DNA from: Candidatus Sungiibacteriota bacterium
GTDB taxonomy: Bacteria > Patescibacteriota > Minisyncoccia > Sungbacterales > JACQCQ01
Assembly: GCA_016201505.1 (NCBI GenBank)
Contig: JACQCQ010000006.1
Coordinates: 1-62,290 of the forward strand
Reading direction: 5' to 3'
DNA: 62,290 nucleotides
In this document: one piece after another, positions 30,606-55,776 of the stretch
How the letters are laid out: each line of letters begins with the position of its first letter
Position numbering within the stretch: position 1 is the stretch's first letter
Notes under the pieces: generated by a model
What the model saw: the letters and a program-made list of their open reading frames with translations, nothing else
Told to the model about the DNA's origin: nothing
Databases searched by the model: none
Program-made: the position numbers and the translations under genes

Positions 30606-31817
30606 TTACTTAACGCCCGCATTCGTTGCCGGGCCTATATTCACGCGCCAGAGTGTTGAATCTTTTTTGTTTATGAAATAGAGATACTTCTCGTCGGGGG
30701 TAAGGAAGAGATGTGTCATATCAAATTGCGAGTCCGTCATGAGTAGGGACGCATTTCCCGTTGAGGCCTCAATTTTTACGAGTGCATCGTGGAAGTTGAC
30801 TTTCCCTTGATACCAATCGTCCGGAAGCCGGATTGATCCATCGCTGTTTATCGTGTCAGCGCCAAGCGGCACCGCGCAGTAGGTACTCGAGCCAACCTGA
30901 TTCCAGGCACATTTTTCCGCCAGCGTGCGGATCCCCGAAACGTCAAGAATGGCAGACGTTTTTTGATTCACCAGTCTAAGATCCTGAAGATTTCCGGCGG
31001 CGTCCGTTGATGAATATAGAAGCAGATTTTTTGCGCCAGCCGGGAGTAACGAGAGGCCGGGTCTTGAAAGAAAATTCTTAGCCGAACCACCAATCGGAAT
31101 GACATAGGCAAGACCAGACACCGCGTAGGTCGGCGTTGTGGTCAGGATCAGGCTGTTGGGGTCAATCCAGCTGACGTGAAAATCCGGGATTGATGTCTGG
31201 TAGATTGTTTTTTGGCTTTTGCCTTTGGCATCCGTCGTGGCGACGCGCAAGGTACTCCCAATCATCTCTGTGTAGGCAATCATGCTTGATTTTGGCGACC
31301 AGGCAGCGCTCGTTACTCCCGGCGGCAGAAATGATGTGCTGGACGCGGCGGTAGTTTGGTTAAAATATTTAGTTCCTCTGGCGTCGCTGTAGCCGACCGT
31401 TGAGTAGGCTTTGTCCGCCGCCCACATAACGTTTGTAATTCCAACCACAGTCAGATTAGATATCGCCGTCTCGTGCCCTCCGTCTAAATCTGCTCTCATC
31501 AGATTCCCGCCGATTTTTTGGTAGAACAAGAGACTCTTTCCGTCACCCGCCAGCGTCGCGCCGATGACGGGCTCTTTGGTAATTTGGGTCACGCTCGCGT
31601 TTACAGGCTGATTTTGATCAGCCGTTCCCGTTTTGTTGCCCGTTGTCGCGCCCGATGAACTCGAGGAACTGCCGCCCCCGCCCGGGAAGGAAAGGAATTT
31701 CGTAATTGTGGTACTCACGGAATTCGGTGAAGTGATGCGCGAATAAATAAACCAGCCAATTAGAATAAAGAGAATAATGGCAACGATACCGACTGAAATT
31801 TTTGTGACTCTTGTCAT
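30606..31817 (-). CDS. membrane-anchored TolB-like beta-propeller protein (last gene of the secretion-apparatus operon)
   Basis: Start taken at MTRVTKISVG (31817), 2 nt after the upstream stop. Has an N-terminal TM segment and a Gly/Ser linker. Repeats resemble PD40/TolB blades (AAWSPKSSMIAYTE..., LFYQKIGGNLMRADLDG). Confidence 0.55.
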   Translation of the reverse strand: MTRVTKISVGIVAIILFILIGWFIYSRITSPNSVSTTITKFLSFPGGGGSSSSSSGATTGNKTGTADQNQPVNASVTQITKEPVIGATLAGDGKSLLFYQKIGGNLMRADLDGGHETAISNLTVVGITNVMWAADKAYSTVGYSDARGTKYFNQTTAASSTSFLPPGVTSAAWSPKSSMIAYTEMIGSTLRVATTDAKGKSQKTIYQTSIPDFHVSWIDPNSLILTTTPTYAVSGLAYVIPIGGSAKNFLSRPGLSLLPAGAKNLLLYSSTDAAGNLQDLRLVNQKTSAILDVSGIRTLAEKCAWNQVGSSTYCAVPLGADTINSDGSIRLPDDWYQGKVNFHDALVKIEASTGNASLLMTDSQFDMTHLFLTPDEKYLYFINKKDSTLWRVNIGPATNAGVK

Positions 31818-31819
31818 AT

Positions 31820-32449
31820 TTAGTAAGGCGGTCCCACGTAGGTACAAACTGACTTATCGCCAAATGCTGGTTTGTAGTTTACTGGACAGGATCCACTATT
31901 AGAAGAAATTATTCCCGGCCAGCAGCTTCCGGCGTATTTATCTTTTACGTACGGGCTGGGACACGTATCGCCTGTTGATGGGATAGATCCGGGCGGGAGA
32001 GGCGCATTATTTGGGATATTGGGGTTAGCGCTTTGTAAAGCTGGGATTTGAATACTCCCAATGTTTAACTGCACCAGATGCGGATTGATTGTGTAGAGAA
32101 TAATATAAGAGCTAAGGGCTAAGACGATGCCCCAGATGGCATTGGTGATTTTGGTGTTGGCTTCGCTAATCTTACTCGGATTTCCTGCCGCATAGATACG
32201 CTTAAGCCCGCCCCAGCTGATCATGAACACCGATGAGACGCCAATGAGGGCAAGACCTAATTTATAAATAAAAATGAGGATGGCGTAGGCGTTTTGATCA
32301 GAGGCGGTGGGGACGTCATTAGCCGCTTGTGAATTTCCAGTAGCCGGCCTATCGGCGGTAAATTGGGCATCGTAATCAGCCGCAAAAGCCAACGAAGCAA
32401 TAGATACAAACAAGAGACAGAAGATAATGGATGTCGCGAAGTATTTCAT
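31820..32449 (-). CDS. pilin-like protein (VirB2/TrbC-like topology) with a Cys-rich C-terminal extension
   Basis: Signal peptide MKYFATSIIFCLLFVSIASLAFA, two hydrophobic helices (AYAILIFIYKLGLALIGVSSVFMISWGGL and AIWGIVLALSSYIILYTI) separated by a short polar loop, then a tail with 5 Cys. The assignment rests on topology only. Confidence 0.4.
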   Translation of the reverse strand: MKYFATSIIFCLLFVSIASLAFAADYDAQFTADRPATGNSQAANDVPTASDQNAYAILIFIYKLGLALIGVSSVFMISWGGLKRIYAAGNPSKISEANTKITNAIWGIVLALSSYIILYTINPHLVQLNIGSIQIPALQSANPNIPNNAPLPPGSIPSTGDTCPSPYVKDKYAGSCWPGIISSNSGSCPVNYKPAFGDKSVCTYVGPPY

Positions 32450-32458
32450 AGGTCTTCG

Positions 32459-33781
32459 TTATTGCACACTGGCCGCAAATGAGCCGAATATACGGAATAG
32501 TTTATCAACCGCGCTTTGGATCGTGACTGAAATATCTTGATTCCCCCGGATACCGGCAGCGCTTCGCAAGGTAAGGAGTTCAGGTGAAGCGCCCTTATTT
32601 TCGAGAACCTGGTTATTGGCCACCCATTGGTATTGTAAATCTTTTACGTAATTTTTCGGCGCAAAAAACGGCTCGGCGATAAAGTCATTGGCACCCCCCG
32701 ACTGGATGGGTATGCTCGAAATGGCGCGCGAGCCGTCAATGCCAGAGAGCGGAATTTTTTGGTAAATCAACGCTTCGGGCTCTGCCAGCGGCAACGGGAA
32801 CGTCGCCTCTTGGGAGAATGTGCCGGAAATATTTTCCACTTTTACGGAAATCGTATCGACAAGCTCTTTAACCGCGGGAATCGTATAGGCGAATATGCTC
32901 TTGGCTTGGCCGGATTGAGATGGAATAATATCGCCATTTATTTTCCAGGTATAAACCAGTGAGTTGGCAATGGCGTCTGCATATGAGGGACGGGCTTGGA
33001 TGTGGATGGTGCTGCCCGGTGTCGCTAGAGCTTTCCCCTGATACCAGGTTGGCACGTAGGTATCCGCCCACCAATAAAATGAAATTGAAAGCGGAATCAG
33101 TGTTTTTGAAGCTCGAAGAACAGTGCCGTCAATTTTCGTGATAGCCAGATCAACGCTGGTTCCGGTCCCGGCCGCCCCGAGACTAAGCGAAAGAGTTTGC
33201 TCGCCTTTCCCCGACTTGGCTATTTTTCCATTTACCCGCCATTCAAATGTGGCAGCCGCGAGCGCATCTCCAAGCGACGTCGCGGTCAAAAGAACGGCCT
33301 CGCCCGGCGCCGGTGAATCGTTGGAGGTATTGATATTGATTTGTGAAAGTCCCAAGAGGCTTGCGCCCACTGCACTCAAGTTATTTTGAATATCTGCCGG
33401 TGAGAGTTGAACACTCATGTATGTCGTCGCCTCGACCGGATTCTGATTCGGGATTGTAGCTCTCACGCGTAGCGGGTAAGATCCAGGACTGGCGGGTGCT
33501 TGGAATGTAAACAGCGTTCTATTGATCCCCGTGACAGTTGGGATCGAGCCATTATTGAAGTACCAGTAAAAAGTGGCCGTTTTAGGATCTGCGCCGACGA
33601 GCGTGGCTTGTGCCGAGAGCTGGGCATTTGTAAACGTCGTTGTTGACGGGATGACCGTTAGATTGATGCCGACGGTGCTTGTCGCGCTTTGCGCCAGGAC
33701 CGAGGCGCCCGGCATCAAGAGCATACAAACCAAGGCCGTCTCCGCCAGCCAGTATTTTTTTATGAGCCAAAAAGTTTTCAT
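32459..33781 (-). CDS. secreted protein with four Ig/PKD-like repeats
   Basis: Signal peptide ...LLMPGASVLAQS. Four repeats of roughly 90-100 aa are each marked by (F/Y)xW..N(G/N): FYWYFNNG, FEWRVNGK, YTWKINGD, YQWVANNQ. Confidence 0.6.
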   Translation of the reverse strand: MKTFWLIKKYWLAETALVCMLLMPGASVLAQSATSTVGINLTVIPSTTTFTNAQLSAQATLVGADPKTATFYWYFNNGSIPTVTGINRTLFTFQAPASPGSYPLRVRATIPNQNPVEATTYMSVQLSPADIQNNLSAVGASLLGLSQININTSNDSPAPGEAVLLTATSLGDALAAATFEWRVNGKIAKSGKGEQTLSLSLGAAGTGTSVDLAITKIDGTVLRASKTLIPLSISFYWWADTYVPTWYQGKALATPGSTIHIQARPSYADAIANSLVYTWKINGDIIPSQSGQAKSIFAYTIPAVKELVDTISVKVENISGTFSQEATFPLPLAEPEALIYQKIPLSGIDGSRAISSIPIQSGGANDFIAEPFFAPKNYVKDLQYQWVANNQVLENKGASPELLTLRSAAGIRGNQDISVTIQSAVDKLFRIFGSFAASVQ

Positions 33782-34425
33782 TGGTTTGACATCCAGAGGG
33801 CGAATAAATACACCAGCGGGCTGATGCCGGAAAACAATATGTAGACCAGCTCCGAACCCGGCACGGCTTCTTCTGCTTTTTGCATGGCTTCAGATCCCGG
33901 AGTGTTGACCCCGGCGAGTTTCATAGCCCGCGCGCCGCTCGTCATCGAGGCCGGATGCAGTTGGTGCCCCACGCGCCAGATCCAGAGAAAGCCTACAATC
34001 ACATAATCAATCATGATCGCAATAAAGGGAATGATAAAATCAGCCAGATAGCCAATCAGTGAAAAGAATGAGACCGCCGCGAATAACAACAACCACTGCA
34101 TCGAGCCGATTTTCTTTTGGGCTTTTTGTTCCGCCTCTTCTGCCCGTTCGGCTTGGGCAAGCGTTTGTTGGCGCCGGCTTTGAGACAGAGCGAGGTAATA
34201 ATTTTCTTCGGCTATTTGCTGGGCTTCGGCGGCCGCCTGTTCCTCCAGGGCCGCGGCTTCAGCCGACCGCATTTTTTCCTGCCGAGCCTGCTCGGCTTCA
34301 GTCCGCTGGTACCACGCTTCATTATCGTCATGATAATCAGTCGCAGGCATCGGCTCGCGTCGCAACACATCCGCAGTCTCAACCGCTCCTAAAATATTTT
34401 CTCTTTTCGTTTCTGTGCTCGGCAT
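33778..34425 (-). CDS. membrane protein with an N-terminal E/A/Q-rich coiled coil
   Basis: 215 aa. AEQARQEKMRSAEAAALEEQAAAEAQQIAEE... is followed by 2-4 hydrophobic segments. Its stop overlaps the next start by 4 nt. Confidence 0.6.
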   Translation of the reverse strand: MPSTETKRENILGAVETADVLRREPMPATDYHDDNEAWYQRTEAEQARQEKMRSAEAAALEEQAAAEAQQIAEENYYLALSQSRRQQTLAQAERAEEAEQKAQKKIGSMQWLLLFAAVSFFSLIGYLADFIIPFIAIMIDYVIVGFLWIWRVGHQLHPASMTSGARAMKLAGVNTPGSEAMQKAEEAVPGSELVYILFSGISPLVYLFALWMSNQ

Positions 34426-34429
34426 AGGT

Positions 34430-36238
34430 TTAACTTGCAGCCAGTTCGGCTTTCGCCTGCTTGATTAATAGTAACTGCTTGGGGTCGGAGGTGATGACCT
34501 GGTCTTCCGTGTAGGAGGCGATAATTTTAATGGCGACGTGCTTAAGTCCCGCAAAGAAAATCCCCTCCCCGACGTCGGACTCAAGCAACAGAAATTTTTC
34601 CTCTTCCGTCAGGTTAAAGGTCTGGGCGACGGCCTCAATCGTGGCGGGAGATTGCTTGAGTAACAGCTGGATCGAGGAGTTCGTCACGATCGGCTTCCCG
34701 TAGGGAGAGCCCATGAAGTCCGCCACATCCTGCGTGATGGTCGAAAGACCCAGATAATATTTGCGGCCGCGTTTGGCAATGCCGTATAGAAACGAGGCGC
34801 CGTCCTCATGCCGCATCAAGACCCAGGCCTCATCCACCACCAGGAGCCGCTTTTTCAACTCGGCCCTGACCAGGTTCCATATATAATGAAGCACGATATA
34901 CATCGCGACCGGCCGCAGTTCTTCTTCCATGTCGCGGACCGAGAAGACCACCATCTTGGAGTTAATATCAATGTTTGTCGGCTGGTTTAAGAATCCGGCC
35001 CAGGTGCCCTCGGTGTATTTTTTGAGCCGGGTGGCCAGCCCCGCGCCGCCCTCGGTATTGGCGAGCACCAAGGCCAGATCAGACAGCGTGGGAAAATTGG
35101 CTTTTGAGAAATCGGAGTTGGGCGTAATGTCGCGCGAGGCGTAAGTTTCGGTAATAGCGCGGTCAAGCACCGAATCTTCATCGGGCGTTAGGCCGCCCAA
35201 CATAATGCGAAAGAGTCCGACCAAGTTGATGATGTTCGATCTTAAAATATCCGAGGGCGACTCATCTTCGCGCGGCGGCGGCAGGTCAAAGGGATTAATG
35301 TGATGGGGCGAATTTAGTGAAATGTTAAAATATCGTCCGCCGACCGTTTCAGCAAGATACTCATACTCGCGTTCAGGATCAATCACCACCACATCCGTTC
35401 CGATCATGAGCGAACGCAGGATCTCAAGCTTTGAAGCGTAGGATTTGCCGCTGCCGGACTGGGCAAACATAACCGAGTTGCCGTTTGGCATTGAGAAGCG
35501 GTCGAAAATGATCAGCGAGTTGTTGTGGCGGTTAACGCCATACATGATGCCGCGCGACGAGGTCAGGTCGAATGAGACAAAGGGGAAGGTCGAAGAGATT
35601 GGTGCCGAATTCATGTAGCTATGAATGAGGAGCTCGTCATTGTTTAAGGGCAAGGTTGATTGGAAGCCTTCTTCCTGCTGGAAGAGTGCCGGCTTCAGGT
35701 AGACGAGTTTGGCTTCCAGCGCAGACTTAATTTGCGTTTCCAATTTATTTAACTCGGTTTCCGAGTCGCCGTAGATTGTAATGTAGAGGGCGAAGTTAAA
35801 TAATTTTTCGGTGGCTTGCTGGAGCTTGTCTCTTAATTCTTCCAGATCGCGGTAGGCGGTATCGAGCACCGGATCGCGCACCAAACCCTTTTCTTCTCTG
35901 GTGGCGAGCTGGGATTGGACTTGGGCCACTTTCTTGCGTAGCTGGTTTAAGACGTTCGATGTATCCACGGGGTGGACAAACATGGAAATGTCGAAGACCT
36001 TATCGAGATTGATGATCGGCGTAAACCAGTTGGTGTGCAGATACCGCGGGTAGGAAAAGGCAAAAAGAGTTCGGACCAGTTTTTCACCAAGTTGCAACGA
36101 AGATGGATTGACTTGCAAAGCCGAGGGCGAGATGATATCGCGCAATGATAATTCGGCCGTGCGGTAAATATCCTCGGGGAAAACGGCCAGTATTTCATCA
36201 GCCTCATTCTTTTTAGATTTTAGAAAATCAAACGCCAT
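34430..36238 (-). CDS. VirB4/TrsE-type type IV secretion ATPase, C-terminal about 600 residues (lacks the usual N-terminal domain)
   Basis: Walker A FAQSGSGKSYASK and Walker B RLLVVDEAWVLM. The segment ISPSALQVNPSSLQLGEKLVRTLFAFSYPRYL...DISMFVHPVD matches the mid-region of Gram-positive VirB4 proteins such as Tn916 Orf16 (from memory). Confidence 0.9.
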   Translation of the reverse strand: MAFDFLKSKKNEADEILAVFPEDIYRTAELSLRDIISPSALQVNPSSLQLGEKLVRTLFAFSYPRYLHTNWFTPIINLDKVFDISMFVHPVDTSNVLNQLRKKVAQVQSQLATREEKGLVRDPVLDTAYRDLEELRDKLQQATEKLFNFALYITIYGDSETELNKLETQIKSALEAKLVYLKPALFQQEEGFQSTLPLNNDELLIHSYMNSAPISSTFPFVSFDLTSSRGIMYGVNRHNNSLIIFDRFSMPNGNSVMFAQSGSGKSYASKLEILRSLMIGTDVVVIDPEREYEYLAETVGGRYFNISLNSPHHINPFDLPPPREDESPSDILRSNIINLVGLFRIMLGGLTPDEDSVLDRAITETYASRDITPNSDFSKANFPTLSDLALVLANTEGGAGLATRLKKYTEGTWAGFLNQPTNIDINSKMVVFSVRDMEEELRPVAMYIVLHYIWNLVRAELKKRLLVVDEAWVLMRHEDGASFLYGIAKRGRKYYLGLSTITQDVADFMGSPYGKPIVTNSSIQLLLKQSPATIEAVAQTFNLTEEEKFLLLESDVGEGIFFAGLKHVAIKIIASYTEDQVITSDPKQLLLIKQAKAELAAS

Positions 36239-36247
36239 CCCAGTCTA

Positions 36248-36562
36248 TCAACTTTCAGAGACGCCAAGCGCCGTTTTTCGGCGTGTGTACTCTTTTAGTC
36301 TTAATCCTAAAAATCTGCGACCTTGTGTGCCTTTGAGGTAATGCTCTCGGCGCTTGGCGTCGTCTTGATTTAAACAGGCTGCGTAATAAACAAGCTCGAA
36401 TGGCAATCGAAACTTGGTCGCAACAGAATAACCTCGTTTGTGTTCTTCTACTCGTTTTCGAAGATTAGGCGTATAACCAATATATCTTTTTTTATCTTTC
36501 ATACTTTCTAGTGCATATGTATAGGAGAACACACTGGAAGTTGTATTACTGGGCATAATCAT
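36248..36562 (-). CDS. stand-alone GIY-YIG nuclease-domain protein lying between the two VirB4 pieces
   Basis: 104 aa. FSYTYALESMKDKKRYIGYTPNLRKRVEEHKRG carries the GIY...YIG...R...E motifs. Its start overlaps the upstream stop (ATGA), and its stop is 9 nt from the VirB4 ATPase ATG. Confidence 0.85.
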   Translation of the reverse strand: MIMPSNTTSSVFSYTYALESMKDKKRYIGYTPNLRKRVEEHKRGYSVATKFRLPFELVYYAACLNQDDAKRREHYLKGTQGRRFLGLRLKEYTRRKTALGVSES

Positions 36563-37236
36563 ATGGTTTCCTCACTGGTTGGTTTCTCTTTTTCCAACTC
36601 CTGCATATTGTACAAACTGTAGAAAAGCTCAATTAGTTCATCCGTTTTTAAAACGGCGCTGCGTACTCCGATGCGCTGGAGGCCGAGTTGCACAGAGTCG
36701 ACTCTCTGCAGAAGCTGGATTTTATTTTGCGCGAACTCGTCGTCGCTTTTCGTTTTGGCGGATTGGTTTTTGGAAAACAGAGAAGAAAGAAAATGCGCCG
36801 CTCCGGCCGGATTTAGGTTTATCGGCTCAAAGGGAACGACAATATAGAAAGATTTCGCCACGATATTCGACAGTTCAACGAACCCGCGCACGAACTCGAT
36901 GTATTCTGCGGTCTGGAGTTTTAATAAGTCATTGTCTTGCGCTTTTTCAAATTCGCGGAGGGATGAAAGGTAGGGCTCGATGTTCAATTTGCGGGATTGA
37001 ATCACGAACTGAAGCGAAAAATCAACCGAATTCAAAAAGTTCTGGTACTGGAAAATAATCGCATCCTGTTCCTCGGGAGATTTCAGCGCAAAGTTAAAAG
37101 CCGAGGCCATCAGGACCATACACAGGCGGCCGTTTTTCATCACAATCAGACCATCGCGGATTGAATCAATCACCAAAAAGTCCTGCGAGGCGCGGGCTGA
37201 TTTTGATTTTTTCGATTCTTGAGGGGCGGTAACCAC
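36559..37236 (-). CDS. VirB4 N-terminal domain encoded as a separate 225-aa protein
   Basis: DFLVIDSIRDGLIVMKNGRLCMVLMASAFNFALKSPEEQDAIIFQYQNFLNSVDFSLQFVIQSR matches the N-terminal module of Gram-positive VirB4/TrsE proteins (D-I-x-Y...E-D/E...F...FLN...Q). 225 + 602 aa is about the length of a full VirB4. Confidence 0.65.
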   Translation of the reverse strand: MVTAPQESKKSKSARASQDFLVIDSIRDGLIVMKNGRLCMVLMASAFNFALKSPEEQDAIIFQYQNFLNSVDFSLQFVIQSRKLNIEPYLSSLREFEKAQDNDLLKLQTAEYIEFVRGFVELSNIVAKSFYIVVPFEPINLNPAGAAHFLSSLFSKNQSAKTKSDDEFAQNKIQLLQRVDSVQLGLQRIGVRSAVLKTDELIELFYSLYNMQELEKEKPTSEETI

Positions 37237-37256
37237 GAATGTTTACAAGAATTGTA

Positions 37257-37658
37257 TTATTCCAGGTTCTCTTTTATATCCAGGCTCCAAGCCAAATCCT
37301 GCAACTTGGATTCGGTTAACTTGGGGATTTTAGAGAGCGGAGTTTTAGGCGTTGCGGTCGGCCCTTCTTTTTTCGCCGGCTGCTGCTTCCAGAGGTATAG
37401 ATGCGGGTGGGTGTAGAAGCCGATGGCGTTCATGACCACTTTCGGAAATGGCACGTTGTTTAATTTAAAAAAGGCCAGAGCCAATGAAAACAAGCCGATG
37501 GGAACAGCCAGCACGATAAAAATATAAAAATTGAAAAGATAGTAAAAAATAACTAAGAGACCGGCTCCCACGGCTAGGTACATAAATTGTTTCAGCGTCA
37601 GCGGGCCGATAATTTTATCCTCGATGTCGATAAATTGCGGGACTTGGTATTGTCTCAT
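37257..37658 (-). CDS. PrgI-family (VirB3-like) type IV secretion membrane protein
   Basis: MRQYQVPQFIDIEDKIIGPLTLKQFMYLAVGAGLLVIFYYL is the characteristic PrgI-family N-terminus, followed by two TM helices. Confidence 0.85.
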   Translation of the reverse strand: MRQYQVPQFIDIEDKIIGPLTLKQFMYLAVGAGLLVIFYYLFNFYIFIVLAVPIGLFSLALAFFKLNNVPFPKVVMNAIGFYTHPHLYLWKQQPAKKEGPTATPKTPLSKIPKLTESKLQDLAWSLDIKENLE

Positions 37659-37662
37659 GATT

Positions 37663-38119
37663 AGGAAATAGGCATTGGGTAATGGGGAATGGATAGGTAT
37701 GTCATAGACGATTGAGACTTGTTATTAAAGCATTCAGCATTTTCATTATGGAAGTTCTGCTCTGCGAGAACCTGTCAAAATTGGATGTATTCAATAGGCC
37801 AACGTTTTTGCTTACCAGCAATTGAGTTTCTAATTCTGCAGCTGAACCTCGAGCAATCCTTAAAAATTGATTGTACTCCTTAATATTTTTACGTGACCAT
37901 CCTTCAGCAATATTAGAAGCAATTGAAATCGCCGCCCGTCTAATTTGGCTCGTCAACCCATACACTTCAGATTTTGGATATAATTCTGTCATACGATATG
38001 TTTCAGTGGTCAGCTCAATTGACTTTTGCCACACCAGTAATTCTCGATACGAATTCATGTTCCATTCGCTGTTCCCCGTTTACCGTCCCTCATTTCCCAT
38101 TCGCTATCCCCCATTTCCT
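37663..38119. mobile_element. four-helix-bundle gene cassette bounded by imperfect inverted GGGAAT/AGGAAAT-word arms (IVS-like insertion)
   Basis: The left arm AGGAAATAGGCATTGGGTAATGGGGAATGGATAGG (37663-37697) pairs with the right arm whose reverse complement is AGGAAATGGGGGATAGCGAATGGGAAATGAGGG... (ending at 38119). The outer 7 nt are perfectly complementary. The first 12 nt are identical to the hairpin at 48681. Confidence 0.6.
37702..38058 (-). CDS. four-helix-bundle protein (23S rRNA intervening-sequence protein / Avd-like family)
   Basis: YRELLVWQKSIELTTETYRMTELYPKSEVYGLTSQIRRAAISIASNIAEGWSR...RIARGSAAELETQLLVS is the canonical TIGR02436-type sequence. Confidence 0.9.
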   Translation of the reverse strand: MNSYRELLVWQKSIELTTETYRMTELYPKSEVYGLTSQIRRAAISIASNIAEGWSRKNIKEYNQFLRIARGSAAELETQLLVSKNVGLLNTSNFDRFSQSRTSIMKMLNALITSLNRL

Positions 38120-39032
38120 AGCCGACTGGTTCACGGTATGGATCGGACGCCTCGTAGGTTTGGGTTTTTGGCGCCGGAGACGTTGCCGGCTTTACAAGCG
38201 GCGGCAGTTTTTCGGGTGCGGGCGGCGGAGGCACAATAATTTTTGGCGTTTGAGGTTCGGTTACTGGTTCTGGTTTTTTAATTTCGGGACTAGGTGCGGG
38301 CACTGGGGTGTGCATGATACCAGACTCCTGCGGCATGGTTTTTATGACCGGAACGGGAGCCGGTTTTGGTTGTAGGCTCGGCATCTCTGGTGTCTCTCGT
38401 GCAGGAGGCGCCGGGGGTTTTGCAATATCCGGCAATTTTTCCGGCAGAATTTCTTTTAAGATGATTGGCGCTTCGGATTTTGGTTCCGTTTGAATCGGCT
38501 TTGGCGTAAATGTCGGCCTTGGCACTGGAGTTTCAAGCGTCATTTGGGGTGCCGCTGTTTTAATTTCCGCTATGGGCGCCGGCGCGTTCGGCGTTTTTAT
38601 TGGAATAGGCACTACCCCCGGACTTTTTGTTTCTTTGGCCATTTGGGTTTCCCGTTTTAATTCCGCCAGCGATGCGGGTTTCTCTTCTGGAATGAGAGGA
38701 CTATTCATTTCTACTTTATGAAGTGTTTTTAAACTTTCGCGGATTGGCGAGAAGAGTTGATGATTTACGTCCTCGGCGATCAAAATGGCTTTATCTCGGG
38801 AAACGCCAAGCGAAGACTTGATGTTGTCAATAAATTCCCGCGCGGGAGACGCGCCGACGAGCACGAGACCGATTTCGTAGCTTAAGTCCCCCACGATATC
38901 AATCGGCAAGGCGTATTTCTTACCGATACTCATGATAATTTGCGAAGTCTCTTGCGCTTCGTAGATTCTCGCGATATCGATCGGGAGAGTTTTATATAGT
39001 TCGATCAGCTGTTCTTTCGATATTTTTCTCAT
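38118..39032 (-). CDS. protein with a helical N-terminal domain and a long Pro-rich tail
   Basis: 304 aa. The N-terminal roughly 105 residues look ordered and the remainder is P/A/E/K/T-rich (PAPIAEIKTAAPQ..., PPPPAPEKLPPLVKP). Its start overlaps the upstream stop by 4 nt. Confidence 0.65.
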   Translation of the reverse strand: MRKISKEQLIELYKTLPIDIARIYEAQETSQIIMSIGKKYALPIDIVGDLSYEIGLVLVGASPAREFIDNIKSSLGVSRDKAILIAEDVNHQLFSPIRESLKTLHKVEMNSPLIPEEKPASLAELKRETQMAKETKSPGVVPIPIKTPNAPAPIAEIKTAAPQMTLETPVPRPTFTPKPIQTEPKSEAPIILKEILPEKLPDIAKPPAPPARETPEMPSLQPKPAPVPVIKTMPQESGIMHTPVPAPSPEIKKPEPVTEPQTPKIIVPPPPAPEKLPPLVKPATSPAPKTQTYEASDPYREPVG

Positions 39033-41641
39033 GGTTGTGTTTGTTGCTGCTGCGGTCCGGTCGCTGGCGGAGGTGGGACTTCGGCTGCGGCAGCCGCCGT
39101 CTCGCCGGCCTTATTCGATAATGGTATTTCATTTCGGACAGAAGTTTGTGCGTCCGGATTTGAAGTGAGAGTTTGGGCCATACCTTGGAATCGAGGGATA
39201 CTTCTAAGTTTTCTTACTGCATACCGCATATTAGTACCCCTTGTGCTGTCGTAAGCATCAAGGATTTTATCAGACTGCTCCCTATCCCATTGCTGGTAGC
39301 GCGCAGTTTTCTCGCCCGGGTCAGTGATAGCATCAAACGAAGGAATTATATAACCCGAAACCATGCGTTTCTGCCCCAGCCATCGATTCATCTCTTGACG
39401 TTGCTGGTTTTTATCATCAGGGAATATGCTCGTGATGCGTTCGAGTGTTTCTCGGAGATCTCGATCACTGCCCGTCGTAAGCGTCACGTTGGTCTCGGGG
39501 TGCTGGATAGTAACCTTATTGAAGTGCTCATCAGCCCCGTCATTTAGATTGGCGTCTAAACCAAGGCCAGCTCCCTGTTTAATGATTTTGCCAAGCTCTT
39601 TTACTCTAAACAGATCGCTGAATATATTCCGCATCGTATTAATGTTGGTCAGCGCCAGAGGCAGAGCCGCACGGAAGACTCCGTTCTTTTCGAAGGTTTC
39701 AGCGCTGATTTTTCTTTGATCGTCTGCCGACATGGAGGCAATCGTCTGCGCCATGCCGCGCATCATGGCTTCGGCTCTCTCCCGCTCATCAGGCTTGCCG
39801 CTCTTAAGAAGCGCCTCGAACTGATTCTCGGGCATATCCCTAATGTTTTCATTGCCCGTCAGAACGCGGGCTTTCTTGCTTAGATCAGATCCGATCGCCT
39901 CCAGCACCTTGCTTTGGTTCTTGGGACTCAATTGCTCAAAGCCTGTTTGATCTCGAATGTCTGCTGACTCTTTGTCTGCAAAAGTATTGCGCAGTTGAAC
40001 AGGCTTGGCATCTTCAATAAACTTCTCCTTTACATTTTTAGCCGCTGATTCAAAGAGCCCGGAGGCTACTCCTGTTTTAATAAACCTTCCGCTGGAATCC
40101 GCAGCCGCTTGCAGAGCAGCAACGCGCGCCTTCTCTCGGTCATCACGCAGTTTTTTGTCTCGTTGCGTAACTGTCAGTAACGGCGCGGCCGCTAATCTGC
40201 CAAGACCCGGGAAAGCTGAAAGTCCTGTCGCTGATTGCACACGAAGCCCAAGTCTTGCGAGCGGAGCGGCTCCCCAACGCACTCCCGCATTCTGCAACTT
40301 CGTCTGGCCCCAATTGCGCAATTGCTTACCGTACTTCATGACACTGCTTGATCCGGCAATGCCCATCTTTTGCGCCACAATTATGGAAATAAATAGGAAG
40401 CTCACGCTAAGGATGAATTGTAGCCAGATGCTGAGGGGTTGGGCTACGGGTTGTCCATTAATATTTGCGAGTGGAGGCGGGATAGCATTTATCAAGGAGC
40501 GCGATACGAGAATTGAAAACATGAAAAACAAGGCAAACGCGGGGTAGTATAGGGAATATTTTATGAGGTTGTCTCTCCAGGGATTCCACATTTGGCCTTG
40601 TGTATAAGGAATCAGTGTTGAGAGAAAGGCCAGCGGACTGACCATCATGAGAAAAGCCAATACCGTAATTCGAACAATCAGAAAAATGGTGGCAGCAAGT
40701 AAGGCAAACAGGCCAACTGGATAAAAGATAAGTTTTAGAGCCAAAGCTTTGCCCACCAGCGAGAGCGTATCATTGTTCTCGCTTATCTGGTTGTTTACGG
40801 TGAGGAGTGCGGCACTAGCGCTATCGCACTTATCGCTATTTTCTTTGGTATAATTCAGAAAGACTGCTTTACACGCTTCAAACCTATCCGCTTCGGCTTT
40901 TTTAAGGCCCTCATTTCCCGCATAAGCCGCTGGTGGTGTTAGGGCAGCATTAACGGGCAGTGTGGGATCAAGCATCGTACGAATGACATCCCCCATCGAT
41001 TGATCTTTTTGCTGGATACGGCCAATAAAGAGATCGCCCAGCGCGTTCGTCACCTGCACGGTAAATTGAACAATGGGAAAGCTGAAGTTGATAATTAAAG
41101 CAATCAGAACTACTTTCCCAATCATTTCTTTTTTGAATGTGCCGACATCAAAAATAGTGCCGAGCGCCATCACGATCAGGATGATGATGAAAAATAAATT
41201 CGCAACATCGCGCGAAATTTGCCAGCCGGCTTGAATTGCGGGAGTGGCTGATAGATTGGCCCGTGTTTCATCAAGAGCCATGCTGAAGAGGTAACTGGCT
41301 ATGCCATAGACGAGATAGGCTAAGCCGTCGAGAGTCTTGATACCCGCCAAGATAAAACCGCAGGCATACAATTTCCAGCTCAAGACGTTGTATCCGCAGC
41401 CCAAGTTGGGTGAGACCGTTGGTGTTGTGGCCGGGCTGCCTCCAGTCAGATTAGTTTTCTGCAAATCACTCTGTTGCGCTTGTGCCGCGGGACTTGACGT
41501 TTTTTCATACTCGAATTGGCCAAGGTCTGGCGGAGAAGCCGGGTTTGCATTTTGTGCCAAACTGATGGCCGGCATCAAAAGGCCTAGGCTGATAGAGGCG
41601 AGTAAGAAAGTATTGAGAATTGTTTTCAGGATTTTGCTCAT
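39029..41641 (-). CDS. large polytopic membrane protein; possible VirB6/TrbL functional analogue
   Basis: 870 aa. Signal peptide, at least 7 hydrophobic segments in residues about 90-470, then a soluble roughly 400-aa C-terminal domain ending in QQQQTQP. The assignment rests on topology and operon context only. Confidence 0.4.
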   Translation of the reverse strand: MSKILKTILNTFLLASISLGLLMPAISLAQNANPASPPDLGQFEYEKTSSPAAQAQQSDLQKTNLTGGSPATTPTVSPNLGCGYNVLSWKLYACGFILAGIKTLDGLAYLVYGIASYLFSMALDETRANLSATPAIQAGWQISRDVANLFFIIILIVMALGTIFDVGTFKKEMIGKVVLIALIINFSFPIVQFTVQVTNALGDLFIGRIQQKDQSMGDVIRTMLDPTLPVNAALTPPAAYAGNEGLKKAEADRFEACKAVFLNYTKENSDKCDSASAALLTVNNQISENNDTLSLVGKALALKLIFYPVGLFALLAATIFLIVRITVLAFLMMVSPLAFLSTLIPYTQGQMWNPWRDNLIKYSLYYPAFALFFMFSILVSRSLINAIPPPLANINGQPVAQPLSIWLQFILSVSFLFISIIVAQKMGIAGSSSVMKYGKQLRNWGQTKLQNAGVRWGAAPLARLGLRVQSATGLSAFPGLGRLAAAPLLTVTQRDKKLRDDREKARVAALQAAADSSGRFIKTGVASGLFESAAKNVKEKFIEDAKPVQLRNTFADKESADIRDQTGFEQLSPKNQSKVLEAIGSDLSKKARVLTGNENIRDMPENQFEALLKSGKPDERERAEAMMRGMAQTIASMSADDQRKISAETFEKNGVFRAALPLALTNINTMRNIFSDLFRVKELGKIIKQGAGLGLDANLNDGADEHFNKVTIQHPETNVTLTTGSDRDLRETLERITSIFPDDKNQQRQEMNRWLGQKRMVSGYIIPSFDAITDPGEKTARYQQWDREQSDKILDAYDSTRGTNMRYAVRKLRSIPRFQGMAQTLTSNPDAQTSVRNEIPLSNKAGETAAAAAEVPPPPATGPQQQQTQP

Positions 41642-43107
41642 CGCTGGAAAATATTACCCAGTCCCTTATTGATCATCTGGCCGACGGCGGTGTTGACAAT
41701 GCTCGCAATCGCTTGGCCGATTTCATTGACCAAATCACGTTGGCGGTCATTTGATTGAATCAAAGATTTCAGCGGTTCGGCTACGATCGAGCCCGGCGTC
41801 ACAATAGAGCCATTGGCATTCTGCTGGCCGTAGAATCCGTTGTTGGCAATGGTTTGAGTTCTCCAGGCGTTGACCGCGGCCGTCTCATAAGCCGCTTTGG
41901 CGTCTTGTGCATTAATTACAGTCTGGACGTAATCACGATTCGGGCTTTGAGCCGCGATCCAATCAGAAATCGGGTAGTTACCGGTGTACGGCGAATAAAA
42001 TTGCGTGTATAAAGCCAGTTGCGGATTGGCTACGTTACAAGCCAGGCTTATGGAGATGTTATTGGAAAATAACGCCGGACCGACGATGGGCGGGAAGTAG
42101 TTGCAGAAATTAATGCCGGTGATTTGCGAGACAAAGATACGCGCCGCGTTTTCGGCGATTTTTTTCGGGTCGGCCGTAAAACTTTGCACGAACTGCGGCG
42201 CGCCGAAGTTGCCGGTTAAAATCCAGCGGATGACCATGTCATGCGCGAGCCGTATCACCTGACGCTCGAGGGCGGTCGCGATGCTATCGAGGCAGTATTC
42301 TTTTTTTACGAGGGCGGCCACATCTTTTTCCGTTTTGGTATTTTCTCCCAAAATCTTCGTCAATATGGTGTCTGTTTTTGCATGTGCAACGCTTTCGGAT
42401 ATGGATAGAAGTAGATCATGCACGGGGATTCCTGTTATCACACCCGCAGTGTCTACTACCTCCGTGCCGCCGTAATCGAATACTTCGTCTGCATAACTTC
42501 CAACGTTACTCGCGACTGTATCCGCCGTTTGACTTGCATCTTCCGTCATGAATTGCCCCACAGCCACTGACCCAGAAGTACCGGCGGTTTCAGTTTCCTC
42601 GACAGCTTTATTGGCAAAATCAGTGCTGGCTTTGTCAAGCGCGTCAGATGAAGCTTGGGACTGCGCGGTGTTTACTACAGAACTTTGACTAATGTCTTGC
42701 TTGATTTCGGTTTTGAATAAACCCCTCAATTGGTCTTGGGCATATTTTTTAGCCCCCTCAACGCCGCCGACTTTAGCCAGTACTGCGCTGACGCCATCTT
42801 TTACCGCGCCGCCAATAGCGCCCTGCGCGATGTTGGCAATATCACCGCCGTTGACGCAACCCGCCCCCGGGATAAATCCCTTGAGGAAACTGGTGATACC
42901 GCTGTCGACCCCGCTATCTACTACGCCGCTTGCCGGCAGATTATTATTGATTTCTTGCAGAACTTGGTCTCCCGTTCCGGGCAGTCCGCCCTGCTCTTGG
43001 GCCAAAGACACGCTGGGCACGACCAATTCAAGCCCTAACACCAGGCATAACCCAATTCCGATCAATCTATTTCTCCAAAAATGAAAATTCCGATTCATGG
43101 TTACCAC
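41638..43107 (-). CDS. secreted hypothetical protein (489 aa)
   Basis: N-terminal signal/anchor [24 protein letters not shown] and a Gly/Ala/Val-rich N-terminal part. 4-nt overlap with the next gene. Confidence 0.6.
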
Positions 43108-44087
43108 CGAAACGTCAAAATGGCTGAATCATGCGATTTAAACTTGACCCCGAGACTGTTGAGCCGCGCAGGAATGGTTGTATTAAAAAGGTCGGCTAAC
43201 TTTTTGCCGGTTACTTCGTAGTCTTGGACCGCGATGATGGCCGACATCGGATCTTTTTGGGTATTGGCGAACGTTTTGTAAATAAATTTTTCTTTGCCGA
43301 TCAGCTGCAAAATCTGCAGGTGGAGATCTTTGACAGGCGCGGGGACTGGGATGGCGGCAATGGCCTGAAACGAGGCCTCGGCCGCCGCGGCATAATAATT
43401 GAATAATCCGTAGCGCGATGCGCTGTTCGGATTGCGCGAAATCTGAAACATCAGCTGAATCGGGTCTTGTCTCACGCCGGCCGAATGTTCACGCAAAATT
43501 TCCGCCATCGAATTAAAATAGTCGCGGATGGCGTCGGGGCTTGCGTCCCCGCCGACTCGAATTTGATTGGGACTTACAGCGCCCGCGGTTTCCGAGGCGG
43601 TTTCATAATTTGATCCGAGCGATTGGATATTTTGCAGCGAGGTCTGAATATCGGGCGATGGCTGAAGCGTGTTGGCGAGTGCGCCCGAGTTGATGATGGA
43701 TTCAGCAAGCTGTGAAGTCAGACCCGCCGATCCGGCAGTCGAGTCGGGGTTTAAGTTTCCGCAACCTTTGACTGTCGGGTCACAGCCCTTTTTCACCTCA
43801 TCACCGTCAGAAACCCCGTCACCGTCGGTGTCGGGATTGTTCGGGTCCGTATGCCAGAGGGTCTCCTCCCAGTTTTTCAGCCCGTCGTGGTCTGGATCAA
43901 CGAGTAAGCCATTAGCCTCGCCGTTGCCGCCGACCGCCGCCGAGAGCCGATTTTGGATAGCCTCCCCGCGGTGCTTCAAAGCGACGTATTCGATCGCAAA
44001 AAATAAGACCAAGAGACCGGCCAGCAACAGCAAAACCACCACGAGCTTTCGCCTGTACGCCAAAATCGCATGGACGATATTCGCCAT
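43101..44087 (-). CDS. membrane-anchored protein with thrombospondin-type-3-like calcium-binding Asp repeats (first gene of the operon)
   Basis: TM anchor [17 protein letters not shown], then [35 protein letters not shown] (DxDxDG repeats). Confidence 0.6.
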
Positions 44088-44099
44088 GACTTAATTATA
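44088..44099 (-). promoter_or_regulatory. consensus -10 (TATAAT) 6 nt upstream of the operon's first ATG; probable leaderless transcript
   Basis: The minus strand reads TATAATtaagtcATGGCG. TATAAT corresponds to plus-strand 44094-44099, and the ATG is at 44087. Confidence 0.45.
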
Positions 44100-44338
44100 C
44101 CAGCATAAGGCTGGGATAATCTGTTAATAACTCTTCATTTTTAATAGTCTGTCTGTGGGAAGTCGTTAAAGCGGGGTTCTGGGCCTTAACCCAATGATGG
44201 AAATTGAGTAGTCTCCCCCTCATCTTTGTATAGGCGCCCAGATTGACCTCGCATTTTAGCTGTTGAGATGAGGTGTTACCTAAAACCCAGCCTGGAGGCA
44301 ACGGTAACTGGGTGAGGCAGACGCGGCATTAACTGTAT

Positions 44339-47138: not shown

Positions 47139-47623
47139 CGGGTGCTATTTTACCCCGGATTAGCTTAATTAGAAAAGAAAAGCACCCCAGGGCCACCCAG
47201 AGCGCTCAAACGACCAGAGACTTCTCCGACCAGATATGAAATTGTAGCTAGTTCCCGAAAGAACCAAAAAATGAACAGATTTCGACGCAATCCTGCAGAG
47301 CTCGTTGGTTCGATGGACCGAAGGTCCGATAGGTTCTGCCAGACTATTGCTTCGCTCGTCTTCCATAGTACATCTATAGGACATTTAATCAATCCAGCTT
47401 TATCCACACCCGGACGAATGTCCTTTAGATTGTCCTTTAGGTTCCGAGTCGGATGATTTGTGGACGATTTTTGATTGTAGGCTGGCTCGCCGGCTGGTAC
47501 TATTGGTTCGTACCGCTTGATGACCAACTGGTACGCCTGAACTCACCGCGGTACGTCTATGGAAAATGAAAACTGGCCCGGTTGTTCTCGTCTTTGCTCG
47601 CGAGCCAATCGGGAAATAACCAA

Positions 47624-48682
47624 ATGAAGTCACCGATTTTAAGACCAGCCTCGGCTGGGATTCTGCTTGTATTGATACTCATCGGCGCTTTAGCAGTTCG
47701 AGCGGACGCAGCGCAGGCCGGGTTTATCTCGGAGCTGATTAAGTTTTTTACCAATGCCGCCGCGACACCAGCCGGCAAAGCCGATTTTATTAATGAAACA
47801 AAGGCCGCTTCGAATGCGGCACCCGTGCTTTATGCCATCCCCAATCCCGAAGCCGCGAAAATGAATCTAAGTCAATTACCCGATCTTGCCTTCATCCAAA
47901 ATGACTCGCTGGTCGCACCGGCCAATCCACTCGGCAGTATTCAAGATCAAGACAACGCCGGCCGCATTTTTGTCTATACCGTGAAACCGGGCGATACCCC
48001 CTCTGCCATCGCCAAATCATTTAGCATCAGCGTCAATACGATCCTGGTCGCCAACAACCTAAAAAATGCCTCGTCTATTAAGATCGGTGACCAATTGGTT
48101 ATTCTGCCAATCTCGGGGGTGACCTATGTCGTAAAAAAAGGAGATACGATCGAGTCGATTGCAAAAAAATATAATCAGACGGCTTCAGACATTCTCTCAT
48201 ATAATAATTTACCCATTGGGGGGACGTTGGATCCCGGCATAGAACTGATTATTCCGGATGGCGAATTGAACGTTGAAAGCCTGCCAAGCCCCGGTGCATC
48301 AGAGCGTTTTGCATCGCTGCCGAATTTGAAAGGTTATTTCATCCGGCCGATTGGAGGCGGCATTAAAACCCAGGGTATTCATGGAAACAATGGCGTGGAT
48401 TTGGCAAACTCCTGCGGTACGCCTATCATGGCGGCGGCCGATGGCGTGGTGCTACTTGCCAGGATAAATGGCTATAACAGTGGATTCGGAGACTATATTG
48501 TTATTGACCACGCCAACGGAACGCAGACGGTCTATGCGCATATTGGGAAAAGTATGGTCACACCGGGTGAGAATGTGACAGCGGGCCAGATCATTGCGCT
48601 TATCGGCAATACCGGTAACACCAAAGGCTCAACCGGCTGTCACGTGCATTTTGAAATTCACGGCGCGCGGAATCCATTTTAG
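47624..48682 (+). CDS. LysM-domain M23-family peptidoglycan metalloendopeptidase
   Basis: Start taken at MKSPILRP (signal peptide). Two LysM repeats (YTVKPGDTPSAIAKSF, YVVKKGDTIESIAKKY). M23 motifs HGNNGVDLA, DHANGTQTVYAH and HVHFEIH. Confidence 0.9.
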   Translation: MKSPILRPASAGILLVLILIGALAVRADAAQAGFISELIKFFTNAAATPAGKADFINETKAASNAAPVLYAIPNPEAAKMNLSQLPDLAFIQNDSLVAPANPLGSIQDQDNAGRIFVYTVKPGDTPSAIAKSFSISVNTILVANNLKNASSIKIGDQLVILPISGVTYVVKKGDTIESIAKKYNQTASDILSYNNLPIGGTLDPGIELIIPDGELNVESLPSPGASERFASLPNLKGYFIRPIGGGIKTQGIHGNNGVDLANSCGTPIMAAADGVVLLARINGYNSGFGDYIVIDHANGTQTVYAHIGKSMVTPGENVTAGQIIALIGNTGNTKGSTGCHVHFEIHGARNPF

Positions 48683-48770
48683 GAAATAGGCAATGGGGAA
48701 TAGGGAATAGGGAATGGGAAACAAATCCAGCGATCACTTTTCTCCCTATTGCCTATTTCCTATTGCCTAT
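48680..48770. repeat. empty GGGAAT/AGGAAATAGG-word hairpin between the convergent M23 peptidase and comM genes (overlaps both stop codons)
   Basis: GGAAATAGGCAAT (48682-48694) is perfectly complementary to ATTGCCTATTTCC (48748-48760). The left arm continues as GGGGAATAGGGAATAGGGAATGGGAA. It probably acts as a bidirectional terminator. Confidence 0.75.
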
Positions 48771-55769: not shown

Positions 55770-55776
55770 CCACTCT

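Follow-up and report, generated by a model that had tools for sequence, protein, structure and literature searches.

Contig JACQCQ010000006.1 of a Candidatus Sungiibacteriota genome (assembly GCA_016201505.1), analysed over its whole length of 62,290 nucleotides (nt) and called the window below, carries 13 co-directional open reading frames (ORFs) on the minus strand between positions 44087 and 30606. They are numbered o1 to o13 in reading direction. This operon very probably encodes a chromosomal, non-conjugative type IV secretion system (T4SS) of the Patescibacteria, in the form found in the Paceibacteria (Parcubacteria; nearest Sungbacteria). Five genes are assigned by sequence homology as T4SS parts, namely VirB6/TrbL (o3), PrgI/VirB3 (o6), TrsD (o7), a CD1110-type VirB4 (o9) and a VirB2-like pilin (o12). 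Together with six lineage-specific envelope or accessory genes they form an 11-gene unit that is fixed by the replication origin across the class. The VirB4 protein is of apparent Gram-positive ancestry (MPF-FATA, CD1110) and is split into TrsD and a short VirB4. A first-pass annotation of this DNA had counted all 13 ORFs as apparatus parts, only two of them recognisable. Five of the eleven conserved genes could be named once orthologues were taken into account, six remained describable by shape only, and the two others, o5 and o8, look like later insertions that left the operon intact.

Relatives were collected with one genome per species, which gave 365 VirB4 relatives. The best 80 of these 365 (L001-L080) were compared, and the gene order in the related loci was read by tblastn and iterated hidden Markov model (HMM) searches. 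The labelled relatives among the best 80 were Patescibacteria/Parcubacteria (Sung-, Taylor-, Nomura-, Portnoy-, Azam-, Ryan- and Yonathbacteria). The common order was uvrD-rsmA-o1-o2-o3-o4-prgI-trsD-virB4-[small membrane protein]-o11-pilin-o13, followed by jag-yidC-rnpA and dnaA-dnaN. Comparison of synteny across Patescibacteria showed that most or all of the 11-ORF core was kept, in this order, in 26 of 26 loci bracketed by rsmA and jag/yidC; these loci span at least seven named candidate phyla of the Parcubacteria group, with Sungbacteria as the nearest named one. The core was also present on a 618-kb contig (L084), with comM and a LysM/M23 peptidase gene further upstream. With this order repeated in dozens of species, the arrangement is far beyond chance.

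VirB4 was the most conserved protein of the neighbourhood. Its median identity was 68%, compared with 51% for DnaA, 47% for TrsD, 43% for PrgI and 40% for both YidC and RsmA, and in all 41 loci with nearly full-length copies of both proteins VirB4 was more conserved than DnaA, a contrast somewhat inflated by the choice of the 80 loci by VirB4 similarity. The extracellular or surface parts (o1, o2, o11, pilin, o13) reached 27-35% identity and the VirB6-type protein o3 25%. Given the size and uniformity of the difference between VirB4 and DnaA, this pattern, despite the selection bias, speaks for a function central to the cell, carried out by a system whose outer face evolves fast.

The motor of the system is assigned as o9, a VirB4 of the MPF-FATA/CD1110 family that lacks the N-terminal domain, which seems to be supplied by TrsD. 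The protein scored 362.6 bits against the NCBIfam conju_CD1110 model (cut-off 325), the alignment beginning only at profile position 181, and matched the Pfam TraG P-loop family (2.8e-25). Both nucleotide-binding motifs are present (Walker A, SGSGKS; Walker B, LLVVDE). Among solved structures, the VirB4 structure 4AG5 was matched with 7.6e-46 and TrwK with 4e-11. Identity to the VirB4 proteins of the 80 related loci was 62-87%, and to plasmid-borne VirB4s at most 36% among the matches listed, the best of which came from Bacillota or Actinomycetota. By pairwise identity, o9 thus groups with the VirB4s of Patescibacteria, and its nearest outsiders are VirB4s of monoderms (FATA).

The family HMMs of the window proteins were also run against two reference loci, that of plasmid pCDC3875 of Clostridium botulinum and that of Pontibacillus sp. 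ALD_SL1 (NZ_CP062975.1). The first-pass annotation had taken o7 as the first part of VirB4; it is a separate gene of TrsD type, by homology a free-standing counterpart of the VirB4 N-terminal domain. It matched the NCBIfam models VirB4_plasma (1.5e-8), TrsD (4e-6) and CD1110 (1.9e-5; profile positions 11-129), and its family HMM recognised both the N-terminus of the full-length VirB4 of pCDC3875 (1.2e-10) and a separate protein of 274 amino acids (aa) in Pontibacillus (8.3e-48). A TrsD homologue was found as a separate gene in 78 of the 80 loci; a single-sequence search of the PDB with TrsD returned nothing useful. The third member of this group, o6, is the membrane partner of VirB4. Its match to PrgI lies above the gathering score, so that both identities proposed in the first reading, PrgI and VirB4, held. 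The protein has two transmembrane helices (hydrophobic segments at residues 28-46 and 48-66); PrgI was found in 72 of the 80 loci, and the family HMM matched the PrgI of pCDC3875 (1.1e-6) and a Pontibacillus protein (7.5e-13).

The VirB6-type protein and the pilin were assigned through orthologues, in Pfam scans of up to 140 sequences per batch. The sequence of o3 itself matched nothing in Pfam or NCBIfam. Among its orthologues, 7 of 40 matched TrbL/VirB6 (PF04610, best 8.3e-6), and the o3-family HMM gave 1.6e-8 to a 779-aa protein at the VirB6 position of Pontibacillus, with no match to the CD1112 VirB6 of pCDC3875. The polytopic character proposed at first was recovered: a signal-like N-terminus is followed by at least six further hydrophobic segments (seven in total) and a charged C-terminal domain of about 440 aa. 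Its place upstream of prgI is that of virB6 in pCDC3875. A profile search of the PDB with o3 yielded coiled-coil or designed-protein noise only. On this transitive evidence, which topology and gene position fit, o3 is accepted as a putative VirB6.

For o12 the pilin-like shape described earlier was likewise seen, with a signal peptide, two transmembrane helices (three hydrophobic segments altogether) and a Cys-rich tail of about 70 aa; the protein has five Cys. Its own scores stayed below the thresholds, both for T4SS_pilin (PF18895, 2.1e-4; 21.7 versus 26.6 bits) and for the Mbov_0395 pilin-like family (NCBIfam NF045849, 9.5e-5; 22 versus 40 bits). The orthologues of o11, o12 and o13 were scanned against Pfam as one merged set, including 50 o12-family and 45 o13-family sequences, and the scan reports domain matches without naming the matching sequence. 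In it, 44 members matched T4SS_pilin (best 1.6e-10) and five TrbC/VirB2. The o12-family HMM recognised two Pontibacillus ORFs (2.4e-21 and 2.8e-16), one of them annotated as pilin-like. Through its orthologues, o12 is assigned as a putative VirB2-like pilin.

The merged scan also contained a few entries with peptidoglycan-enzyme domains (SLT 3.2e-30, SLT_2, YkuD and VanY). These are presumably the long members of the pilin family, whose lengths range over 127-1,477 aa. If so, wall remodelling of the VirB1 type would be fused to a pilin-like protein in some lineages, where the window pilin carries its Cys-rich tail instead.

The ORF scan reproduced the 13 co-directional minus-strand ORFs and the limits given in the first-pass annotation, and most junctions are as tight as it held. 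There are 4-nt overlaps at o2/o3, o3/o4, o7/o8 and o10/o11, a gap of 4 nt at o9/o10 and gaps of 9 nt at both o8/o9 and o11/o12. At o1/o2 the genes overlap by 7 nt with the GTG start of o2 or are 2 nt apart with the ATG at 43098, which is probably the start; at o12/o13 the overlap is 28 nt with the TTG start of o13, or the gap 2 nt with the probable ATG start at 31817. Exceptions to this tight spacing are the gaps at o4/o5 (59 nt) and o5/o6 (43 nt), on either side of the inserted o5, and at o6/o7 (20 nt).

The TATAAT noted at first is present at 44099-44094, exactly 6 nt ahead of the o1 ATG at 44087, and is preceded by TG (TGgTATAAT). Inspection of the sequence upstream of o1 revealed neither a -35 match nor a Shine-Dalgarno sequence. 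A generic sigma-70 promoter scan, which needs a -35 hexamer, left the operon promoter unflagged and gave counts equal to the shuffle expectation. At least 9 of 38 orthologous operons have a TATAAT-type box 5-9 nt ahead of the first gene (e.g. L001, L004, L010, L012, L022 and L043). The promoter call is based on the sequence of the box and its cross-species recurrence, and this recurrence supports a genuine promoter function. The first cistron, o1, is probably leaderless or near-leaderless. The short distance between box and start across many species, together with the lack of a Shine-Dalgarno sequence in the window, suggests that leaderless translation of the first cistron may be a conserved feature. 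At the other end, the hairpin listed in Table 1 is the probable end of the transcription unit; its putative terminator function comes with no T-run. Rfam at gathering thresholds reported four tRNAs only, all distant, and no riboswitch or other structured RNA in the 251-nt leader or the operon. The G+C content of the operon (0.496) is similar to that of the flanks, without a compositional island.

Table 1. Positions of the operon genes and of associated features in the window
Feature	Positions	Strand	Basis or remark
Extended -10 box, TGgTATAAT	44094..44102	-	read from sequence; putative promoter
o1, 328 aa	43101..44087	-	TSP3_bac 2.5e-9; first gene of the conserved core
o2, 489 aa	41638..43107	-	helical secreted protein
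o3, extended VirB6/TrbL-type polytopic protein, 870 aa	39029..41641	-	assigned through orthologues
o4, 304 aa	38118..39032	-	Pro-rich tail
Inserted cassette with o5 (37702-38058, 118 aa)	37662..38120	-	PF05635
o6, PrgI/VirB3, 133 aa	37257..37658	-	PF12666 8.3e-11
o7, TrsD-type protein, 225 aa	36559..37236	-	NCBIfam VirB4_plasma/TrsD/CD1110
o8, GIY-YIG protein, 104 aa	36248..36562	-	PF01541 1.8e-13
o9, VirB4 ATPase, 602 aa	34430..36238	-	NCBIfam conju_CD1110 4.2e-108
o10, 215 aa	33778..34425	-	composition and hydrophobicity
o11, 440 aa	32459..33781	-	Ig/PKD-like repeats
o12, VirB2-like T4SS pilin, 209 aa	31820..32449	-	assigned through orthologues
o13, 413 aa	30606..31847	-	PD40/TolB-type beta-propeller; last gene of the operon
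Perfect 13-bp hairpin, 4-nt loop	30554..30583	.	between o13 and the PaaX-like gene, whose stops converge
LysM + M23 peptidase	47582..48682	+	Peptidase_M23 2.1e-26, LysM 7.1e-26; outside the operon, 3.5 kb upstream

After profile and structure attempts, o1, o2, o4, o10, o11 and o13 were left with a description by shape, which agreed with the one given in the first-pass annotation for the TSP3-like anchor, the Pro-rich protein, the repeat protein and the propeller. Pfam scans of the orthologues of these unassigned proteins added only TSP3, Ig/PKD and PD40. Profiles of the o1 C-terminal domain, o2, o3 and the o4 N-terminal domain matched none of the PDB chains of VirB8, TcpC, TraM and PrgL. The possibility that the six are diverged standard Gram-positive modules was rejected, their HMMs matching nothing in the pCDC3875 and Pontibacillus loci.

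The first of them, o1, has an N-terminal membrane anchor (hydrophobic residues 13-31), two calcium-type DxDxDG (TSP3) motifs and a C-terminal domain of about 190 aa. Orthologues were found in 40 loci, and 28 of 38 matched TSP3 and nothing else. A profile search of the PDB with the C-terminal domain gave no meaningful match (coiled-coil or designed-protein noise).

In o2, a signal peptide and a low-complexity spacer precede a conserved helical domain of about 265 aa (residues 225-489), which bears two invariant Cys as well as the conserved motifs GxFGxPxF and TPG. Its orthologues, present in 40 loci, range from 275 to about 1,800 aa, some with CARDB domains. Searches of Pfam, NCBIfam and PDB sequences found nothing, and Pfam holds no model for the family. 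The family is large: in a set of 1.84 billion representatives, 5,818 clusters reach E <= 1e-3 and 2,466 reach E <= 1e-30. A large unannotated secreted family belongs to the T4SS unit. AlphaFold2 modelled the domain from a 79-sequence alignment of representative-library matches as long helices with a small hairpin (predicted local distance difference test, pLDDT, 68.2; predicted template modelling score, pTM, 0.43), and a model from a 15-sequence alignment (pLDDT 43.5) was unusable. Foldseek of the o2 model against PDB and BFVD gave nothing better than E = 1.9, and a VirB5-like or other known fold for o2 is therefore not supported. A distant family member, P0158, lies on a 3.8-kb contig with an uninformative context.

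The protein o4 combines a conserved N-terminal domain of about 110 aa with a Pro-rich tail (17.8% Pro) and is presumably cytoplasmic, since it has no hydrophobic segment. Its domain gave 53 matches across the related loci and is sometimes duplicated; neither the sequence, nor the orthologues, nor the N-domain profile matched Pfam or the PDB. Word-indexed protein searches for o2 or o4 (4, 12 and 13 matches) brought no informative names or domain fusions. The N-terminal half of o10 is charged and coiled-coil-like, and three hydrophobic segments stand at its C-terminal end. No family was matched in Pfam, NCBIfam or the orthologue scan, and sequence homologues occurred in only 4-6 loci. In 57 of the 80 loci virB4 is directly followed by an ORF of 105-337 aa; 52 of these ORFs contain one or more hydrophobic segments and 41 contain at least two, and their sequence similarity to o10 is lost. 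By its sequence, o10 is a candidate fast-evolving small membrane protein.

The last two are predicted surface proteins. In o11 a signal peptide is followed by four Ig/PKD-like repeats of about 105 aa with (F/Y)xW..N at residues 71, 179, 277 and 384. Its own matches were weak (PKD 4.4e-4, BiPBP_C 1.1e-5); it was found in 64 loci, with orthologues matching Ig_3, PKD_3 and BiPBP_C, and may be a secreted wall-spanning or adhesive component. In o13 an N-terminal membrane anchor (residues 17-35) and a Gly/Ser linker lead to the propeller. The PD40 match was weak on its own sequence, and the protein was present in 60 loci. In the merged scan 15 members matched PD40 (best 3e-11) and others matched further propeller families; a single-sequence PDB search with the propeller returned nothing useful.

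T4SSs of this kind form a known class, described in publications of 2023 and 2025, and the operon is a real, well-conserved machine and not a new kind. The view that its composition was largely undefined did not stand: TrsD, PrgI, VirB6, VirB2-like pilins, the missing relaxase and the dnaA, ksgA and rnpA neighbours have all been described (PMC10633639; PMC12102498; PMC12857230). In a survey of 2,474 virB4 genes, the VirB4 clade of the Patescibacteria was sister to MPF-FATA (Quinonero-Coronel et al. 2025, PMC12102498). TrsD, PrgI/VirB3, VirB6 and VirB2-like pilins were located near virB4, relaxases occurred in very few genomes, and the typical neighbours of virB4 in Paceibacteria were dnaA, dnaN, rnpA and ksgA (PMC12102498). 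The window agrees in its MPF-FATA-type VirB4, separate TrsD, PrgI/VirB3, VirB6 and VirB2-like pilin, in having no relaxase or type IV coupling protein (T4CP) nearby, and exactly in the dnaA/dnaN/rnpA/ksgA layout. Neighbours without a profile match are unnamed in that survey, whereas here o1, o2, o4, the o10 position, o11 and o13 emerged as conserved members; the two inserted genes of the window are not mentioned there. A review lists the systems of Patescibacteria as a new T4SS type (2025, PMC12857230).

A large part of the uncultured diversity of bacteria falls to the Patescibacteria, which depend on hosts, and their T4SS is one of a small number of machines that, in Saccharibacteria, have proved essential for this lifestyle. 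The T4SS of Southlakia epibionticum ML1 (SEML1_0005-0019) is essential for epibiotic growth; it is origin-proximal and includes pilins, and neither a coupling protein nor a relaxase can be recognised in it (Wang et al. 2023, PMC10633639). The window shares the origin-proximal site, the presence of pilin genes in the cluster, the lack of these two proteins and the core order VirB6 - PrgI - TrsD-like - VirB4. Only Southlakia carries a pair of VirB6-like genes, an array of six pilins, an NTF2-like (VirB8-like) protein, a PEGA Ig-like protein and, after virB4, a triple lysozyme-like protein. The window operon, in contrast, has one VirB6 and one pilin, the NTF2-like protein and the lysozyme are absent, and in place of the Southlakia accessories stand the TSP3 anchor, o2, the Pro-rich protein, the protein with four Ig repeats and the beta-propeller. 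Of the two, it is the Southlakia system alone for which genetics support essentiality.

With the locus of pCDC3875 (CTn2/CD1110, MPF-FATA) the window shares the order VirB6 - PrgI - x - VirB4 - small protein and a VirB4 of the same NCBIfam family, and the TrsD HMM matches the N-terminus of the plasmid VirB4; identity between the two VirB4s is about 30%. The plasmid differs in a VirD4-like T4CP beside VirB6, a full-length VirB4 of 797 aa, a 957-aa SLT hydrolase and typing to a MOBP relaxase, and it has no annotated pilin. The window operon, by comparison, is chromosomal and without T4CP, relaxase or in-operon hydrolase.

The closest relative found outside the Patescibacteria lies on the 898-kb Pontibacillus replicon (L082, about 351.8-361.4 kb), with two pilin-family ORFs followed by a VirB6-like protein (779 aa), a PrgI-like protein, a TrsD-like protein (274 aa) and a short VirB4 (621 aa). 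This VirB4 is 34.7% identical to that of the window over 99% of its length, and as in the window no T4CP or relaxase is annotated within 12 kb. It differs in that an M23 metallopeptidase comes right after virB4, in the lack of o1, o2, o4, o10, o11 and o13, and in its position beside flagellar genes, away from the replication origin. Since this Bacillota replicon carries both, the combination of a split VirB4 with a VirB2-like pilin is, judged by homology, not exclusive to Patescibacteria. What the present analysis adds to the published picture is of modest weight. It delimits an 11-gene core in Paceibacteria, six conserved members of which are unassigned, sizes the o2 family, and describes both the cousin locus of Pontibacillus and the two insertions. 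The window is a clean Parcubacteria example, and the core set, the o2 family and the Pontibacillus cousin are useful targets for structural or genetic work.

In the proposed mechanism, TrsD and VirB4 would dock onto PrgI and VirB6, and together they would make up a channel in the cytoplasmic membrane that is driven by ATP and polymerises the pilin into a tube or pilus. The fast-evolving o1 (TSP3), o2, o11 (Ig) and o13 (propeller) may build or decorate the part that spans the wall and contacts the host. The machine would then move macromolecules across the contact with the host cell and support host-dependent growth, not conjugation.

Several points weigh against this interpretation. Six of the eleven core proteins have no assigned role, and neither a VirB8-like nor an in-operon VirB1-like component was found. 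The identities of VirB6 and the pilin come from orthologues, the window's own sequences falling under the curated thresholds. The sole structural model obtained, that of o2, is a prediction of moderate confidence and matches nothing. Co-transcription of the 13 ORFs is read from their spacing. Essentiality and a role in host contact are extrapolated from Saccharimonadia, a class with different accessory genes. The negative results on conjugation genes span the 62-kb contig, and in many genomes of Patescibacteria VirD4 homologues are encoded far from virB4 (PMC12102498).

A bolder version of the proposal takes the six unassigned proteins and the Cys-tailed pilin as a Paceibacteria-specific outer module that replaces VirB8, VirB1 and an adhesin, and the whole as a former conjugation channel turned into a feeding tube that would penetrate the host and take in its macromolecules, RNA for example, in place of an exporter of DNA or effectors. 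We consider this speculative and rather unlikely.

A role as an inward-directed machine for the uptake of DNA or other nucleic acids, like ComB or the archaeal Ced system, appears improbable. The ComB system of Helicobacter pylori has VirB2-, VirB3-, VirB4- and VirB6-like parts and works without a relaxase or a VirD4-type coupling protein. This diderm system includes homologues of VirB7-10 and feeds into ComEC. Both ComB and Ced use a VirB4-type ATPase, but no relaxase or coupling protein. The part list of the window, VirB2-like, VirB3, VirB4 and VirB6 with T4CP and relaxase absent, equals that of ComB as generally known, and comM lies about 5 kb upstream in conserved synteny. No sequence relationship to ComB closer than the VirB4 superfamily was seen, and the weak match of o9 to CedB (3.1e-12) amounts to 45.9 bits against a threshold of 700, with 17.7 against 600 for CedD, a similarity at superfamily level only. 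Transport direction is unreadable from sequence. Nucleotide synthesis is missing in Patescibacteria, and for a cultured Microgenomatia strain a 2026 preprint describes tubular structures, possibly T4SS pili, that penetrate the host envelope, and proposes uptake of host RNA through them. In Southlakia, however, competence requires comEC and type IV pili, and deletion of comEC abolishes competence while viability is kept, whereas the T4SS is essential (PMC10633639). A separate PilB-type pilus ATPase encoded in the window could also serve uptake.

That the operon might be the transfer module of an integrated or decayed conjugative element, with relaxase, T4CP and integrase elsewhere, is very unlikely, although VirB4, PrgI, TrsD and VirB6 derive from Gram-positive conjugation genes and T4CP genes are often unlinked from virB4 (PMC12102498). 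No member of the relaxase, VirD4/TcpA, VirB11 or VirB8/9/10 families was found among the scanned proteins of the 62-kb contig, a scan that passed over about six small ORFs of less than 200 aa, and on this the first-pass annotation was right. The combination of standard Gram-positive modules with an adjacent relaxase, T4CP and integrase was looked for and did not turn up. The window does encode a tyrosine recombinase (55684-56748) and a serine recombinase (60573-62282), but 11-16 kb off, near tRNA genes and beyond housekeeping genes. The rsmA/jag slot by dnaA is identical in all 26 bracketed loci of widely diverged lineages, the base composition follows the surroundings, and VirB4 is conserved more strongly than DnaA, unlike the cargo of mobile elements. 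The same slot in at least 26 other species, with a G+C content like that of the surroundings, bears out the initial view of a chromosomal system that is not an ordinary conjugative element. A non-functional relic broken by selfish genes (GIY-YIG and four-helix-bundle) can be dismissed, since the two low-G+C, foreign-looking genes, one of them between trsD and virB4, sit between genes and never within one, the 11 core ORFs are all intact and either tightly joined or overlapping, and VirB4 retains its catalytic motifs and 62-87% identity across the surveyed loci.

These two genes account for the ORFs that are not apparatus parts. The o5 product is a 23S_rRNA_IVP four-helix-bundle protein (8.7e-37); a T4SS-DNA_transf match (0.0043, sub-threshold) was judged noise. 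Its cassette is bordered by a 30-nt imperfect inverted repeat (arms 37662-37691 and 38091-38120) and has a G+C content of 0.378, compared with 0.496 for the operon. Genes of the o5 type occur in 14 of the 80 loci (L002, L006, L010, L012, L014, L015, L026, L030, L049, L050, L055, L061, L062 and L073) in three different slots, 13 of the 14 within one gene of prgI, and many of the copies have bordering inverted repeats of their own made of short tandem motifs. In the predicted fold the repeats of the cassette pair, but shuffled sequences reach an overall energy that is just as good (z = 0.34). The cassette looks like a small mobile or RNA-structured element that favours this part of the T4SS operon.

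The GIY-YIG gene o8 sits exactly between trsD and virB4, overlapping the trsD stop by 4 nt and ending 9 nt before the virB4 ATG. Its G+C content is 0.41, and in L001, the closest relative, just 41 nt separate trsD from virB4, compared with about 350 nt in the window. A homologue was found in one of the 80 loci, in a different slot. By its sequence, o8 resembles a free-standing homing-endonuclease-like insertion between the two halves of the split ATPase.

On one side the operon is flanked by dnaN, dnaA, rnpA, yidD, yidC, jag and a gene with a PaaX_M domain, on the other by rsmA (ksgA), uvrD, the LysM/M23 peptidase gene and comM. The rest of the window is housekeeping (uvrB, polA, fpg, holA, ruvB, tyrS, and genes for a class A penicillin-binding protein, PNPase and the CCA-adding enzyme). 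The order comM - LysM/M23 - small ORF - uvrD - rsmA - T4SS was also found in L084, and 48767-50296 (minus strand) belongs to the conserved upstream block as well. An M23 match lies on the same side in L046 (about position 41); most of the fetched loci were too short to show this block. None of the 13 ORFs encodes a VirB1-like peptidoglycan hydrolase. The M23 enzyme is considered a possible cell-wall hydrolase because an M23 enzyme follows virB4 in Pontibacillus, and by this analogy the LysM/M23 peptidase may, tentatively, be a helper of the T4SS in peptidoglycan remodelling.

A PilB/T2SSE-type ATPase gene (14263-15921, 1.9e-119) follows two ORFs without a Pfam match (273 and 378 aa). This locus (12136-15921) is probably part of a type IV pilus locus and thus a second envelope machine in the window. 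Three genes for PaaX_M (Cas2-like) paralogues of about 190 aa with a hydrophobic N-terminal stretch, mutually 52-61% identical, lie at 6430-6999 (minus strand), 15981-16556 (plus strand) and 29974-30546 (plus strand). The copy beside the T4SS operon has no counterpart at this position in any of the 80 related loci and is therefore a recent addition at the site.

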